Source: an uncultured Chloroflexia bacterium (GTDB lineage Bacteria; Chloroflexota; Limnocylindria; Limnocylindrales; CSP1-4). From it: 64,000 nt of DNA. This document shows positions 30,134 to 36,052 of this stretch, piece after piece. Location: NCBI GenBank assembly GCA_963703155.1, contig OY969796.1, positions 3,766,325 to 3,830,324 of the forward strand. The letters are read 5' to 3'. The position numbers and the translations under genes were made by a program. Position 1 is the first letter of the stretch. Each line of letters starts with the position of its first letter. The notes beneath the pieces are model-generated. The model made no database searches, had not been told where the DNA came from, and worked only from the letters and a program-made list of their open reading frames with translations.

Positions 30134-31081
30134 TCAGGAACCGACGATGTGCGTCCCGGCTCGGCCGTGGAGCGCCAGCTCGAGGTTCCCGGGGCTGGAG
30201 ATGACCGCCTCGCCGCCGCCCCGCTCCAGGAACCCGATGCAGGCCTCGATCTTCGGGGCCATGCTGCCGGGCGCAAAGTGCGTCCCGTCGGCGAGATAGG
30301 CGCGCGCCTCATCGAGGGTCAAGCGGTCAACGAAGCGCTGCGTCGGCTTGCCCCAGTCGAGCGCGACCCGCTCAATCGAGGTGCTGATGACGAACAGGTC
30401 GGCACTGATGACGGTCGCCAGCAAGGCTGACGCATAGTCCTTGTCGATGACGGCAGCGATCCCGTGGAGCAGGCCGTGCTCGTCGGCCACGACGGGGATG
30501 CCGCCTCCGCCGACGGTGATGACCACGAACCCGTCGTGGAGCAGCGCCCGGACGGCCCGCTCCTCCACGATCCGGATCGGCTTCGGCGATGGCACCACCC
30601 GTCGCCACCCGCGGCCGGCGTCCTCCCGCACCGACCAGCCGTCGACATCGCGGCGCCGGAGCGCCGTCGCCTCGTCCATGAACGAGCCGATCGGCTTGCT
30701 GGGGTTCGCGAACGCGGGATCGTGGGCGTCGACCTCCACCTGGGTCACGACCGTGACAGCCTGACGCCGCATCCCCATCTGGCGGAAGTCGTTCGCCAGG
30801 TTCTGCTGCAGCTCGTACCCGATCGCGCCCTGAGAGTCCGCGCCGCACACGTCGAGCGGGACTTCGTGGAGTTCGTGCGCCGAGAGCTCGGATCGGCGCA
30901 GGATGAACCCCACCTGCGGGCCGTTCCCGTGGCCGATCGCGACGTGCCACCCTTCCTTGATGATCGCGGCGATGTGGCCGCTCGTCTCGCCGAGCGCCGC
31001 GTACTGGTCCGGGACCGTCATGTGCTGCGGGTCCCGGATGAGCGAGTTGCCGCCGATCGCGACGACGAGGGTCTTGGTCAC
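30134..31081 (-). CDS. arcC: carbamate kinase
   Basis: 315 aa. LVVAIGGNSL, HGNGPQVG and the amino-acid kinase fold support the call. Confidence 0.85.
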   Translation of the reverse strand: MTKTLVVAIGGNSLIRDPQHMTVPDQYAALGETSGHIAAIIKEGWHVAIGHGNGPQVGFILRRSELSAHELHEVPLDVCGADSQGAIGYELQQNLANDFRQMGMRRQAVTVVTQVEVDAHDPAFANPSKPIGSFMDEATALRRRDVDGWSVREDAGRGWRRVVPSPKPIRIVEERAVRALLHDGFVVITVGGGGIPVVADEHGLLHGIAAVIDKDYASALLATVISADLFVISTSIERVALDWGKPTQRFVDRLTLDEARAYLADGTHFAPGSMAPKIEACIGFLERGGGEAVISSPGNLELALHGRAGTHIVGS

Positions 31082-31151
31082 GCCGTCTCCTCCTGATTCG
31101 CCGCCAGCCGGCCAGGCGGCCGGGACGATGACCGCCTGCCCTGACTCGGCA

Positions 31152-32129
31152 TCACCGCATCGTCAGCGCCATGACGGCCTTCTGGGCGTGGAGCCGGTTC
31201 TCGGCCTGGTCGTAGACGACCGAATGCGGGCCGTCGATGACCCCGTCGGCCACCTCGACGTTCCGGTCCGCGGGGAGCGGATGCATGTAGATCGCATCCT
31301 CTCGGGCCAGCCCGATCCGGCGCTCGTCGGTGATCCAGTCCGTGTACCGCCGCGCGGTTGCGGCTCCCTCCTCCTCGGAGGTGGCCGTGAGCAGCGCGCC
31401 CCAGCTCTTCGCATACACGATGTCGGCGCCGCGCATGCCCGCGTCGAAGTCGTCCATCAGCTCGAAGCTGCCGCCGCTGCGGCGGGCGTTCTCGGCCGCC
31501 TGGTCCACGTACTCCTGTGGCAGCCGGAACTCCGGCGGGTGGACCAGCCGGACGTGCATCCCGTAGCGGGTGGTGAGGAGCGAGAGGTCCACGGGCACGC
31601 TGATCGGCTTCTGGTAGCTGGCGGCGTACGCCCAGCTGATGTCGATCGTCCGCCCGCGCGGATCGCCCTTCTGCTCGATGATCGTCAGCAGGTCGGCCAG
31701 CGACTGGTGGGGGTGGAACAGGTCGCACTGCATGTTGAGCACCGGGACGCGCGACGCCGCGGCCACCTCCCGGAGGTACGCGTTGCCGACGCCCCAGTCG
31801 CAGTGCCGGATCGCGATCCCGTCGTTGTAGCGGCCGAGGATCTCGCCGATCTCCTTGGGCGTGTCGCCGTGGGCGATCTGCGTGGTCCGGCTCTCGATGA
31901 ACTGGGCGTGGCCGCCCAGCTGCGCCATCCCGGCCTCGAAGGAGGCACGGGTCCGCGTCGACGAGAAGAAGAACAGCATCGCGAGGACGCGGTCCCGGAG
32001 CAGCGGGTGCGGGATCCCGAGGGCCCGCTCCCGCTTGAGCTGCATGGCCACGTCGAGGACGGTGTCGACCTCGTCCTTGGTCCACTCCTGGAGCGTGATC
32101 AGGTCGCGGCCCTTGAGCCCGGTCTGCAT
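31152..32129 (-). CDS. YgeW-type (knotted) carbamoyltransferase
   Basis: Block-by-block match to E. coli YgeW. TQIAHGDTPKEIGEIL...GVGNAYLREV, NMQCDLFHPHQSLADL, ISWAYAASYQKPISVP, SGGSFEL...ADIVYAKSW, AIYMHPLPAD and STRTR are all present. Confidence 0.8.
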   Translation of the reverse strand: MQTGLKGRDLITLQEWTKDEVDTVLDVAMQLKRERALGIPHPLLRDRVLAMLFFFSSTRTRASFEAGMAQLGGHAQFIESRTTQIAHGDTPKEIGEILGRYNDGIAIRHCDWGVGNAYLREVAAASRVPVLNMQCDLFHPHQSLADLLTIIEQKGDPRGRTIDISWAYAASYQKPISVPVDLSLLTTRYGMHVRLVHPPEFRLPQEYVDQAAENARRSGGSFELMDDFDAGMRGADIVYAKSWGALLTATSEEEGAATARRYTDWITDERRIGLAREDAIYMHPLPADRNVEVADGVIDGPHSVVYDQAENRLHAQKAVMALTMR

Positions 32130-33096: not shown

Positions 33097-34556
33097 CGTG
33101 CGATCTGCTCCTGTGGACGCGAGGTGGCGGCCGCGACGATGGGCGGTGGCACCCGCCCGTCGTCCCTCCGGACGCCGGTGAACAGGACGGCCACGGTCTC
33201 GCCCTCCCGGACGAGGCCGCTCCGTGTCAGTGAGAGGAGGCCGGCGAGGCCGGCCGTACCGGTGTGGTCGACATCGATCCCAGTCGACGTGCGCCCGAGC
33301 TCGTTCGCCGCACGGACGGTGGCCTCGTCAACGGCGACCGCGCCGCCGCCGGTCCGCTCCATCGCCTCGACGACGGCTGCCCAGTCGTACGTCTCGTCGT
33401 CGAGGATGCCGTGCGCGACGCTCGATGGCTCGGTTTCCCAGGGCCGCATGTACGCGGAGCGGTGCGTCCGGGCATGCGCGAGGGCCGGTCCGGGGCCTGT
33501 GAGGGCGACACGCTCTCGGAACCGCTGCCACGCGCGAACGAGCGGCGCGCACCCCTCGGTCTGGACGGCGTAGAGCCTCGGCTCGCGCTCGATGGTCCCG
33601 AGCACGTGCGCCTCGGCGAAGGCTGCCGCGACTGCGGAGGCGAGTGCGCCGCCACCGACCTGGATCACGACCGCATCCAGACGCGCCCGAGCCTCCGTGC
33701 GGCTGGCGCGCGCCTGGCGGACCAACTGCGCGACCATCTCGTAGCCGATGGTCTGGCCGCCCTCGATGGCGAGGCCGTTCTCGTTGCCCTGGCAGGTGAA
33801 CGGGACGGCCCCATGGGCAATCGCTTCGCGCAGGCGGCGGTAGGTCGGGTCGCCCGTCTCGCCGGCCTCTCGCCGACAGGCGACGACGTCGGCACCGAGC
33901 TCACGCAGCCTCGCGACCACGACCGGGTCCGCCCAGGTGGGGACGTAGACGTCGAGGGGCCGGGCTGCGGCGCGCGCGACGACGGCGGCCGCCAGCGCCG
34001 CGTTCCCGCAGCTGGCGATCGCGAGGCGGCCCGTCACGATGCCGGGCGCGAGCTCGTCGGCGACCAACAGGTCGATCATGACCCCCATCAGGTGGCGCGC
34101 CTTGTGCGAGCCCGTGACGTTCGTCGTCTCGTCCTTGACGAGGAGGCGTCCTGCTGCCAACCCGGCCCGGGCGGCGAGCACCGGGGCCGGCTCGAATGGC
34201 GTCTCGCGGAACCCGTGCCCGTCGACCGCCGCGACGCTCGCGTCCAGGCGCCCGACGAGGGCGACGTAGCGCTCGTCCGACCACCCCTCGGCACGGGCGA
34301 TGTGGTAGGCGCGCGAGAGGGTGCGGTAGCGCGCGAACGTCCCGGCATCGAGCCCCGCGTCCGGTCCGGCGTCGGGGAACGCGAGGCGGGCCGGGTCGAT
34401 GGAGCGGCGGAGGACGTGGTCGATGTCATCCCCGTCCCGCGCGGCCGGGCAGCGGGCGATGAAGGCGATCTCATCGGGCACCACGTGCCCGCACCCAGCG
34501 CAGGCGAGCCGGATCGGAAGCGGCCGCCTGGCGGCTGACCCGCGCGGAGCCGTCAC
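33093..34556 (-). CDS. PLP-dependent enzyme (fold type II, threonine synthase-like) with an N-terminal Cys4 zinc ribbon
   Basis: TGSHKAR PLP-lysine motif and CAGCGH...C. The GTG start overlaps the upstream stop (GTGA). Confidence 0.6.
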
Positions 34557-36052
34557 GACGCCTCCGGCGCGCCGACCCGTGCGTTGAACTCGTCGATCAG
34601 CCCGTCCCAGACCGGCAGCATGGCCCGCGTCTCGGCCCAGAACGCCGGCCGCCGTCTCGCCTCGAACTCGTCGAGCGGCACGCCCTGCTGCTCGACCCAG
34701 GTGAAGTACCCGAGGTTGAAGATGCGATCGCGATCGACCCGCGACAGCTCGAGCAGGTCATCGGTCCCGGCACCGAGCACGAACCGACCGAACGTCTCGC
34801 CGGCATCGACCGCGTCGAACGCGCCGCCGAAGTCGCGCGCCAGGATCCGCTCGATCTCGGTGCCGTACATGGCGGCCCCGTCGGTCGCGACGGTGGCCAC
34901 GATGTCGTCCGGGCCGTACCCCTCGTACTTGGCCATCTTGATGGCGGCCACGATGTTGCACAGGCTCGAGAACCCGAGCGACGGGAGGGCATCGATGATC
35001 GCCGCCGGAACGTGTCGTCGGTTGACGAGGTACTCGCGGCCCGCGTCGGACGCGAACATGACTTCGAGGCGGTCCGTCGCCTCCTCCGAGACCGCGACGA
35101 CGACGTCCGTCGCCATCACGTTGTGGATGAGCGGGATGTGCTTGTCGCCGATCCCCTGAATGTTGTGCTCGCCGAAGCCGTTGCGGAGCATCGTCGGGCA
35201 CTCGAGCGCCTCGACCGCCACCGTGCGCGAGCCGTGGCGCTCCTTGAGGTAGTCTCCGGCCCCGATGGTCCCCGCCGAGCCGGTGGCCGAGACGAACGCG
35301 CGGAGGCGCAGCGCAGGCTCCTCGGCCTGCATCGACTCCACGATGGCCTCGACCGCGCGACCGGTCAGCGCGTAGTGGGCGATGTGGTTCCCGAACTCCG
35401 AGAACTGGTTGAAGATGACCGCGTCCGGCTCCCGATCGAGCTCCGCGCAGCGGTCGTAGATCTCCTTGACGTTGCTCTCGGTGCCGGGCGTGCGGATGAT
35501 GTCGCCCGGATCCGCGACCCAGCGCTCAAGCCACGCGAACCGCTCGCGGCTCATCCCGGCCGGCAGGACCGCCACGCCCCGGCAGCCCATGATCCGCGAG
35601 ATCGCCACGCCGCCCCGGCAGTAGTTCCCGGTGGACGGCCAGACGGCGCGCTGCGCGGTGGGGTCGAACTGGCCGGTCACGATCCGCGGCGCGAGGCAGC
35701 CGTACGCGGCGATGACCTTGTGGGAGCCGATCATCGGGAAGCGGTCGCCGAGGGCCACGACGATCCGGCAGTCCACGCCGGTGAGCTCTGGCGGCAGCAC
35801 GACGTGGACCGGGACCTCAACCCGCTCGCGGCGTCCGGGCCCGTTGAACCAGTGAACGCGGAACAGGTTCAGCGGGTGTGCGGCGTCCGGGTCGATGGTC
35901 GCCAGGCGCCCGGAGATCGACGCCGGGATGGTGGTCGGGTCGGCGAGCTGGGCGAACGTCGGGAGGACGATCCCCGCCTCGCGGAACCTGCCGACCGTCC
36001 GCTCGTAGACGCCGGCGTCGGCCAACTCTCGCTCCAGCCCCAGCCGCCGCAT
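34553..36052 (-). CDS. PLP-dependent enzyme (fold type II, TrpB/cysteine-synthase-like) with a long C-terminal extension
   Basis: GSHKV PLP-lysine context and a glycine-rich loop ([10 protein letters not shown]). 499 aa. Confidence 0.6.

Follow-up and report, generated by a model that had tools for sequence, protein, structure and literature searches.

We analysed a 64,000-nucleotide (nt) stretch of DNA from an uncultured Chloroflexia bacterium (contig OY969796.1), which we call the window and to which all position numbers refer unless another locus is named, and we find that it carries a five-gene minus-strand operon that is very probably part of the reductive urate (2,8-dioxopurine) pathway. 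The operon encodes two pyridoxal phosphate (PLP) enzymes, PLP1 and PLP2, two carbamoyltransferases, TCa and TCb, and a carbamate kinase, CK. Its placement in this pathway follows from a divergent, plus-strand set of XdhD-like, SsnA-like and YgfK-like genes that begins about 170 nt upstream of PLP1. These genes lie outside the interval 30134–36052 and were missed by the original prediction, an earlier reading of the same DNA that had left the substrate open-ended. We further think it fairly likely, with less assurance than the pathway assignment itself, that TCa takes the place of the hydrolase YgeY, that PLP1 and PLP2 together take the place of the lyase YgeX, and that two ATP are gained per urate.

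All five genes of the operon, PLP1 (34553–36052, 499 amino acids (aa), ATG start), PLP2 (33093–34556, 487 aa, GTG start), TCa (32143–33096, 317 aa, ATG start), TCb (31152–32129, 325 aa, ATG start) and CK (30134–31081, 315 aa, GTG start), are intact open reading frames (ORFs) on the minus strand. Each has a coding-type GC content at third codon positions (GC3) of 0.84–0.96, in a window whose overall GC content is about 71% throughout. The stop codon of PLP1 overlaps the start codon of PLP2 as GTGA at 34553–34556, the stop codon of PLP2 overlaps the start codon of TCa as ATGA at 33093–33096, and gaps of 13 nt (32130–32142) and 70 nt (31082–31151) separate TCa from TCb and TCb from CK. Coordinates, GC3 and junction sequences all agree with the ORFs, overlaps and gaps of the original prediction and with its description of one tightly packed, partly translationally coupled operon; the tight stoichiometric co-expression that it also claimed is suggested by the overlaps. 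Ribosome-binding sites of the GGAGG type precede four of the five starts, with a weak site at TCb, and the N termini of PLP1 and PLP2 agree with those of their homologues, which makes the start codons credible. A consensus scan, weak at 71% GC, returned no promoter-like sites and only one terminator-like site, which lies within the TCb coding sequence and amounts to a chance-level count. The identical five genes recur in identical order in Chloroflexota relatives. Among the related loci described below, PLP1 and PLP2 can overlap by 4 nt at 45 of 70 across phyla, and PLP2 and TCa can overlap at 12 of 28; this conservation of layout is well beyond chance.

A tblastn search of the window with the ygeW-to-xdhD region of Escherichia coli K-12 (locus L001) found homologues of YgeW, YqeA, SsnA, YgfK, XDH and GuaD and no match to HyuA, YgeY or YgeX. 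The first of the divergent plus-strand genes (36220–38961), located by tblastn with the 883-aa orthologue from the Chloroflexota locus L002, encodes a fused [2Fe-2S] and molybdopterin enzyme of the XdhD/DOPDH type. In the window it is read in three pieces (frames +1, +3 and +1, with switches near 36700 and 37875) that are 78–81% identical to the L002 protein, which is encoded by a single 883-aa ORF and scores 919 against a TIGR03311 cut-off of 830. Its stop codon overlaps, as ATGA, the start of an SsnA-like amidohydrolase gene of a short, ~344-aa form (38958–39993, plus strand, also found by tblastn). The product is 82% identical to SsnA2 of L002 and 38% identical to E. coli SsnA, and the gene has a frame switch near 39935, about 20 codons ahead of the stop. 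Next comes a gene for a short YgfK-like reductase (39995–41911, plus strand) that comprises the N-terminal YgfK half and a 4Fe-4S dicluster (Pfam Fer4), with no FAD/NAD(P)H module; it is 41% identical to residues 7–405 of E. coli YgfK and 38% identical to residues 898–978. The L002 orthologue of this reductase matches positions 5–404 of 1012 in TIGR03315, and the top NCBIfam matches of the L002 SsnA-like and YgfK-like proteins are SsnA and YgfK, respectively, both below cut-off. SsnA-like proteins occur in two forms: one of about 344 aa, without the N-terminal ~55 aa and C-terminal parts (window 38958–39993; L002 6148–7182), and a full-length one of about 459 aa (L003 5762–7141). The short form accompanies YgfK-type reductases.

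Both carbamoyltransferases consist of the Pfam domains OTCace_N and OTCace. TCa shares 38% identity with E. coli PyrB and scores 246.9 against the TIGR00670 cut-off of 236.95 and 216 against the NF002032 cut-off of 263. It keeps the carbamoyl-phosphate site, S52-T53-R54-T55 (STRTR), R105, H134 and Q137, as do its 34 orthologues, and it keeps R167, the binder of the alpha-carboxylate. In aspartate carbamoyltransferase (ATCase), the carboxylates of aspartate are bound by R229, by Q231 and by K84, which the adjacent chain contributes. In TCa, K83-K84 is replaced by D-F when aligned with E. coli ATCase and by F-Y when aligned with 1ml4, T228-R229-V230-Q231 is replaced by E-P-V-V in HMMER alignments with five solved ATCases, and 13 aa are inserted in the 240s loop; all of these changes are invariant in the 34 orthologues. 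Because R167 and the carbamoyl-phosphate binders are kept while K84, R229 and Q231 are gone, TCa is, by its predicted active site, an ATCase-derived enzyme that would suit an N-carbamoyl alpha-amino acid but not the aspartate side chain. Pairs of TCa and CK without TCb, found at loci L009, L064 and L069, argue that TCa is itself catabolic, forming the carbamoyl phosphate that would feed the kinase. Its neighbours are PLP enzymes, CK, XDH, SsnA and YgfK, and the neighbourhood holds no pyrimidine-biosynthetic context (pyrI, pyrC or carAB). By TIGR00670, TCa would be named an aspartate carbamoyltransferase, which is likely to be a systematic misannotation of the whole TCa family.

TCb shares 36% identity with E. 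coli YgeW and 28% with ArgI and lies below all NCBIfam cut-offs, with scores of 247.6 against 306 and 237.5 against 280.85 for OTC, 240.8 against 288 for AOTC, 226.9 against 500 for PTC, and 163 against 500 and 177 (176.6) against 453 for YgeW (TIGR03316 / NF005538). It has the motifs QCDxxHPxQS, AYxxSYxKPxSVP and DIVYxKSW in common with YgeW; where OTC has its motifs DxxxSMG and HCLP, TCb has YAKSWGA and HPLPAD instead. At 325 aa it is shorter than the 396-aa YgeW, lacking three YgeW insertions and the C-terminal tail. In a neighbour-joining tree, TCb is sister to the YgeW clade and TCa groups with PyrB. We propose TCb to be a compact YgeW-like carbamoyltransferase and the functional equivalent of YgeW. 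CK scores 360.1 against the TIGR00746 cut-off of 358.25 and 375.2 against the NF009007 cut-off of 266, and is 47% identical to E. coli YqeA; by family it is a genuine carbamate kinase of the YqeA/ArcC type. These results uphold the predicted combination of two distinct carbamoyltransferases, one ATCase-like and one YgeW-like, with a carbamate kinase.

PLP1 and PLP2 both belong to Pfam PALP, and neither matches any characterised family at curated cut-offs. For PLP1, the top NCBIfam match, cysK, reaches 72.7 of the 350.95 bits that the cut-off demands, and its AlphaFold2 model (predicted local distance difference test (pLDDT) 85) has CBS, OASS and beta-cyanoalanine synthase as its best Foldseek matches, at 20–29% identity. 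The model is that of a fold-type II PLP enzyme with a CysK/CBS-like core and helical extensions at the N and C termini; the label 'TrpB-like' given to PLP1 in the original prediction gives way to this CysK, CBS and OASS resemblance. Invariant residues of PLP1 include Lys112 (SHK), S140-T141-G142-N143 and G258-S259-A260-G261. Besides a CysK-like fold and Lys112, PLP1 has an STGN substrate loop and a variant of the CysK loop HKIQGIGAGFIP (GIGAGF-type). For PLP2, the top NCBIfam match is threonine synthase, at 101.3 bits against a cut-off of 303, with threonine dehydratase also among the best. Its AlphaFold2 model (pLDDT 84) is matched best by ThrC, the threonine deaminase TdcB and serine racemase, and on this model its likeness to ThrC is at the level of the fold only, with 15–24% identity. 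The invariant residues C19, C22, C36, D43, D46 and H47 of PLP2, which include a zinc-ribbon-like N-terminal Cys3-His/Asp motif, fit the earlier description of a ThrC-like enzyme with a zinc ribbon; K152 (GSHKAR) and S182-C183-G184-N185 are invariant as well. With the Schiff-base lysine and cofactor loops kept in both, PLP1 and PLP2 look catalytically competent. Public sources name them cysteine synthase and threonine synthase.

By sequence, neither PLP enzyme is an orthologue of YgeX: tblastn gave no YgeX match in the window at 1e-5, and hhalign against YgeX gave no significant match for PLP1 and, for PLP2, a probability of 72% with 25% identity over 200 columns. In the profile alignment, the invariant Cys183 of PLP2 occupies the position of YgeX Asp120, where PLP1 has Thr141, as in CysK and ThrC. 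Asp120 is the second base in diaminopropionate ammonia-lyase, equivalent to Ser84 of serine racemase; the Cys183 of PLP2 is likewise ionisable. The difference between Cys183 and Thr141 at this position suggests a division of labour in which PLP2 might use two bases and so cope with D-isomers, and PLP1 might be L-specific, beta-eliminating or beta-replacing. The earlier description of two PLP enzymes of unknown substrate holds in so far as no characterised family is reached at cut-off, but the urate-pathway context narrows the substrate.

The operon has many relatives. PLP1 homologues are 71–94% identical among the 119 closest database clusters, and a scan of one genome per species gave at least 594 confirmed PLP1 relatives, from which 80 loci with 60–81% identity were kept. 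The 82 related loci taken into our tblastn census span six or more phyla, and their carriers include Chloroflexota, Actinomycetota, Acidobacteriota, Myxococcota, Gemmatimonadota and Alpha- and Betaproteobacteria; Rhodoplanes azumiensis and Pleomorphomonas sp. JP5 are among the cultured carriers, and the closest named relatives are metagenome-assembled genomes (MAGs) of Limnocylindrales and 'Chloroflexia'. The Chloroflexota loci L002 and L003 show the same eight-gene divergon, with a fused XDH, an SsnA-like protein and either a short YgfK or a DHO-dehydrogenase-type reductase on one side and PALP, PALP, OTCace, OTCace and AA_kinase on the other. PLP2 directly follows PLP1 in 75 of the 82 loci. 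Linkage to urate genes is frequent: some front-half gene (XdhD-like, SsnA or reductase) lies within 10 kb in 63 loci, with XdhD-like genes at 53 and SsnA-like genes at 57.

The genes of the downstream half are distributed in a mutually exclusive manner across these 82 loci. TCa is present at 34 and YgeY at 11, with zero co-occurrence; TCb is present at 24 and true YgeW, 45–68% identical to the E. coli protein, at 12, again with zero co-occurrence and in otherwise equivalent clusters. CK is found at 30 loci, HyuA at 18 and YgeX at 2. Mixed clusters exist, with YgeW, TCa and CK at L059 and TCb and YgeY at L053. In complete E. coli-like sets from Acidobacteriota (L063 and L013), PLP1–PLP2 sits where YgeX would be; L063 has HyuA, XDH, SsnA, YgfK, YgeW, YgeY and CK together with the pair. 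Actinomycete operons have the order adenine deaminase, PLP1, PLP2, TCa, XDH, SsnA, luciferase-like (F420-type) reductase and XDH2, and match the F420 variant that has already been noted (PMC12507026). At the actinomycete loci L025 (8165–18709) and L017 (5633–20751), an adenine deaminase or a nucleoside ABC transporter lies upstream, the luciferase-like (F420-type) oxidoreductase comes after SsnA and TCa is the sole carbamoyltransferase inside the core operon. The Thermoanaerobaculia locus L052 (8540–18860) carries HyuA, PLP1, PLP2, a cytidine-deaminase-like gene, a YgeX homologue, CK and an XdhD-like gene, and is the only clear coexistence of YgeX and the PLP pair among the 82 loci.

The reductive route of urate breakdown, which is independent of oxygen, was elucidated only in 2025, in gut bacteria, including E. 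coli (Liu et al., bioRxiv 10.1101/2025.04.24.650524; Li et al., Life Metab 2025, PMC12507026). There, XdhD/DOPDH converts urate to 2,8-dioxopurine, which is reduced by YgfK or UacX; ring opening by SsnA and then HyuA gives 2,3-diureidopropionate; YgeW with phosphate removes one ureido group as carbamoyl phosphate, from which ATP is formed via YqeA; and YgeY removes the other ureido group before YgeX converts diaminopropionate to pyruvate (bioRxiv 10.1101/2025.04.24.650524; PMC12507026). For the window, the family-level gene identities, the conserved order and coupling of the genes, their linkage to urate genes and the patterns of mutual exclusion are observed; from these we infer the substrate of each carbamoyltransferase, the roles of PLP1 and PLP2 and the ATP yield as follows. 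In the front half, urate would be reduced to 2,8-dioxopurine by the XdhD/DOPDH-like enzyme and this product reduced further by the short YgfK-like protein, and the SsnA-like amidohydrolase would open the first ring of the reduced 2,8-dioxopurine. The operon would then supply the downstream half, in which the C3 unit is released and energy conserved, once both rings have been opened to give 2,3-diureidopropionate. TCb, as the YgeW equivalent, would phosphorolyse one ureido group of this compound, and TCa would phosphorolyse the remaining one, the N-alpha-ureido group of ureido-diaminopropionate, a step that in E. coli falls to the hydrolase YgeY. Both cleavages would release carbamoyl phosphate for conversion to ATP by CK, and two ATP would be gained per urate instead of one. 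Finally, PLP1–PLP2 would convert 2,3-diaminopropionate to pyruvate and ammonia, where E. coli uses the single lyase YgeX.

Within this scheme we favour the assignment of TCb to the 3-ureido group and TCa to the 2-ureido group by analogy with ATCase, which acts on an alpha-amino group, and with enzymes of the OTC/YgeW type, which act on a side-chain amino group; the scheme of the Dodd laboratory has the same order (2025 pathway study). Two undescribed activities may be involved, an ATCase-derived ureido-diaminopropionate carbamoyltransferase and an obligate, coupled PLP pair that processes a C3 diamino acid in a manner unlike YgeX, for instance by stereoinversion and beta-elimination or by direct elimination from ureido-alanine. 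We advance these two activities tentatively, giving them a little less than an even chance.

Several observations weigh against the reading in which TCa replaces YgeY and PLP1–PLP2 replaces YgeX. No hydantoinase or dihydropyrimidinase (HyuA) is found in the window or in Chloroflexota-type loci, which leaves the second ring opening unaccounted for; HyuA is absent from many YgeY-type neighbourhoods, too. The need for two PLP enzymes is unexplained, and at L052 a YgeX that is 46% identical to the E. coli enzyme is clustered with PLP1–PLP2, so that the pair may not be a simple YgeX substitute. The pair has no urate gene within 10 kb at 19 of the 82 loci, and at two annotated ones, L058 and L075, it stands alone among unrelated genes, which fits a self-contained terminal step. 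The patterns of mutual exclusion follow phylogeny to some degree. For TCa, MAFFT allows an alternative alignment that sets an invariant Arg of the loop opposite R229, and published studies differ on the order of ureido removal, the Zhang laboratory assigning YgeW to the 2-ureido group. The window copies of the XdhD-like and SsnA-like genes are frameshifted, while the five-gene operon itself is intact; other long-read MAG loci are fragmented in a similar way, and assembly indels are thus probably a likelier cause than decay (pseudogenization) of these upstream genes. Candidates for a hydantoinase substitute were considered and rejected: the other amidohydrolase of the window is guanine-deaminase-like, and its genes for a metallo-beta-lactamase and a 'cyclase' do not accompany the cluster at related loci.

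Some of the same observations could be accommodated if PLP1–PLP2 belonged to the same cluster but acted on a ureido intermediate instead of replacing YgeX, with diaminopropionate handled elsewhere or never formed. PLP1 might then carry out beta-elimination or beta-replacement on 3-ureidoalanine (albizziin), or PLP2 might be a two-base racemase that inverts D-intermediates. This would explain the joint presence of YgeX and the pair at L052, and it suits the actinomycete operons, in which only PLP1–PLP2–TCa accompanies XDH, SsnA and the F420-type reductase and a second enzyme for ureido cleavage is missing from the vicinity. CysK-family enzymes accept ureido-type and heterocyclic N substituents, O-ureidoserine synthase being an example, and the ATC and OTC families normally take L-amino acids. 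HyuA is D-specific (2025 pathway study), and Cys183 of PLP2 lies at the position of the second base of YgeX and serine racemase. We nevertheless consider action on a ureido intermediate unlikely, as E. coli-like clusters with YgeW, YgeY and HyuA retain PLP1–PLP2 and miss only YgeX, and as the two carbamoyltransferases of the window operon suffice for both ureido groups.

In two further explanations the PLP enzymes are not catabolic. PLP1–PLP2 might be maturation or accessory factors for the molybdenum hydroxylase, supplying, for example, sulfur or selenium as the labile ligand of the TIGR03311-type enzyme: the pair is most often near XdhD-like (53 of 82) and SsnA (57 of 82) genes, this XDH family is named 'selenium-dependent', YqeB-like genes occur at some loci and sulfide is handled by CysK-like enzymes. 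Known molybdenum-cofactor sulfurases are, however, fold-type I PLP enzymes. The pair is also translationally coupled to TCa in a catabolic operon, it stands alone far from any XDH in some genomes and its presence complements the absence of YgeX, making a maturation role improbable. Least credible of all is a mixed biosynthetic operon of ordinary PyrB and ArgF with PLP enzymes of cysteine and threonine synthesis, the scenario that the original prediction had named as its own refutation; we regard it as very improbable. In its favour are the score of TCa just above the TIGR00670 ATCase cut-off and the names cysteine synthase and threonine synthase carried by the PLP genes in public sources. It conflicts with the loss of K84, R229 and Q231 in TCa and of the OTC motifs in TCb, with the scores of PLP1 and PLP2 far under the CysK and ThrC cut-offs, with the carbamate kinase inside the operon and with linkage to XDH, SsnA, YgfK and purine-catabolic genes in many phyla, where no pyr, arg, cys or thr neighbours are seen.

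Several known systems can be compared with the window. The E. coli cluster ygeW-ygeX-ygeY-hyuA-yqeA/ygfK-ssnA-ygfM-xdhD has in common with the window the XdhD/DOPDH-type, SsnA-type and YgfK-type enzymes, a YgeW-type carbamoyltransferase beside a carbamate kinase and a PALP-family enzyme at the end of the pathway, and it follows the same logic, from urate to a C3 amino acid with ATP from carbamoyl phosphate. It differs in that the window YgfK lacks the FAD/NAD(P)H half, its SsnA is short, its YgeW equivalent has 325 aa instead of 396 aa and YgfM is not found, while an ATCase-derived carbamoyltransferase and two non-YgeX PLP enzymes are added; the window type is hosted by Chloroflexota, Actinomycetota and Acidobacteriota of soil and freshwater, as against the gut anaerobes of the E. 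coli-type pathway. The uricolytic cluster of Clostridioides difficile, with UacX and UacY, likewise has downstream steps that are interchangeable modules, UacY replacing YgeW and CK, and a UacX-like DHO-dehydrogenase-type reductase occurs in relatives of the window such as L003. In C. difficile the shift is to hydrolysis, with no ATP at that point; the window is proposed to shift the opposite way, to two phosphorolytic cleavages.

At the level of single enzymes, TCa shares with PyrB the fold family, STRTR, R105, H134, Q137, R167 and the HxLPR motif, and differs from it in the replaced K83/K84, R229 and Q231, the 13-aa insertion of the 240s loop, the lack of pyrI or other pyr context and the partnership with CK. 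PLP1–PLP2 have the PLP fold type II of YgeX/DpaL and the same place in the logic of the cluster, with PLP2 aligning weakly, but there are two enzymes for one, and PLP1 comes from the CysK/CBS branch. With the arginine deiminase pathway (ArcA-ArcB-ArcC-ArcD), the operon has in common a catabolic carbamoyltransferase, a carbamate kinase and substrate-level phosphorylation; the window differs in having no deiminase, antiporter or ornithine-binding motifs, and its context is purine catabolism. The original prediction had already set the operon apart from the arginine-deiminase layout, and indeed no deiminase or arcD-like gene is present among the ORFs scanned, from ~11.5 to 57 kb. An arginine deiminase or a putrescine/agmatine-type operon was rejected for the lack of a deiminase and an antiporter and for putrescine carbamoyltransferase scores far under cut-off. 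A diaminopropionate natural-product cluster (SbnA-like) was also rejected, with an SbnA score of 37 bits against 350 and no SbnB, nonribosomal peptide synthetase or polyketide synthase domains in the neighbouring ORFs scanned.

The divergent intergenic region upstream of PLP1 contains a conserved element (36091–36131, minus strand) of the sequence CCCTGCTGTTCGTCCCG-N-GGCCCGTTCAGACCCG, in which two GTTC-N3-4-CCCG repeats lie about two helical turns apart. It is conserved in alignments of Chloroflexota-type loci, with an exact match of the core in five of them (L002, L003, L005, L024 and L026), ~65–100 nt upstream of PLP1. The element has no Rfam match, and RNAalifold gives no consensus RNA structure for it; it may be a candidate operator or promoter element. 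A riboswitch, such as one of the xanthine/urate NMT1 class, was rejected, as the whole window has no Rfam match at the gathering threshold; a scan of 35950–36300 gave one chance-level match (E 4.1).

Other purine-related genes lie further along the window. A second XDH set on the minus strand (42249–47516) includes a fused FeS/FAD subunit, together with a guanine-deaminase-like gene whose TIGR02967 score is 335.6 against a cut-off of 375.4, and a third XDH is encoded at 57111–60665, also on the minus strand. Three XDH-family enzymes in the window are consistent with a purine-catabolic island. Two small plus-strand ORFs with coding-type GC3 flank the main genes: one of 232 aa (29426–30124), convergent on CK and ending 10 nt away, has no Pfam or NCBIfam match, and one of 105 aa (41878–42195), after the YgfK-like gene, has no Pfam match. 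An unrelated plus-strand sugar-utilization cluster (20889–28048) encodes an ABC solute-binding protein, a permease, a GH31 glycosidase and a LacI regulator, and is followed by genes for a small protein with two treble-clef zinc-finger domains (27915–28631) and a DinB-family protein (28529–29290).

Published surveys record the Chloroflexota and Actinomycetota clusters only by Pfam family, taking any PF00291 (PALP) gene for 'YgeX' and any PF00185 (OTCace) gene for 'YgeW'. Full-text literature searches turned up only the two 2025 studies and commentaries, in which neither the two carbamoyltransferases nor the PLP pair is described. Abundant phyla of soil and freshwater use a different set of enzymes for the downstream half of the pathway, and the PLP1 family reaches at least 594 species genomes. 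Annotation is a trap here, naming TCa an aspartate carbamoyltransferase and PLP1 and PLP2 cysteine and threonine synthases. If the proposed roles are true, this variant would double substrate-level phosphorylation from urate, an extra ATP-yielding step that could serve engineered urate-degrading strains. It would also provide a new carbamoyltransferase specificity and give a role to two large unannotated PLP families. The two undescribed activities, if real, would set the soil form of the pathway apart in mechanism from that of the gut.

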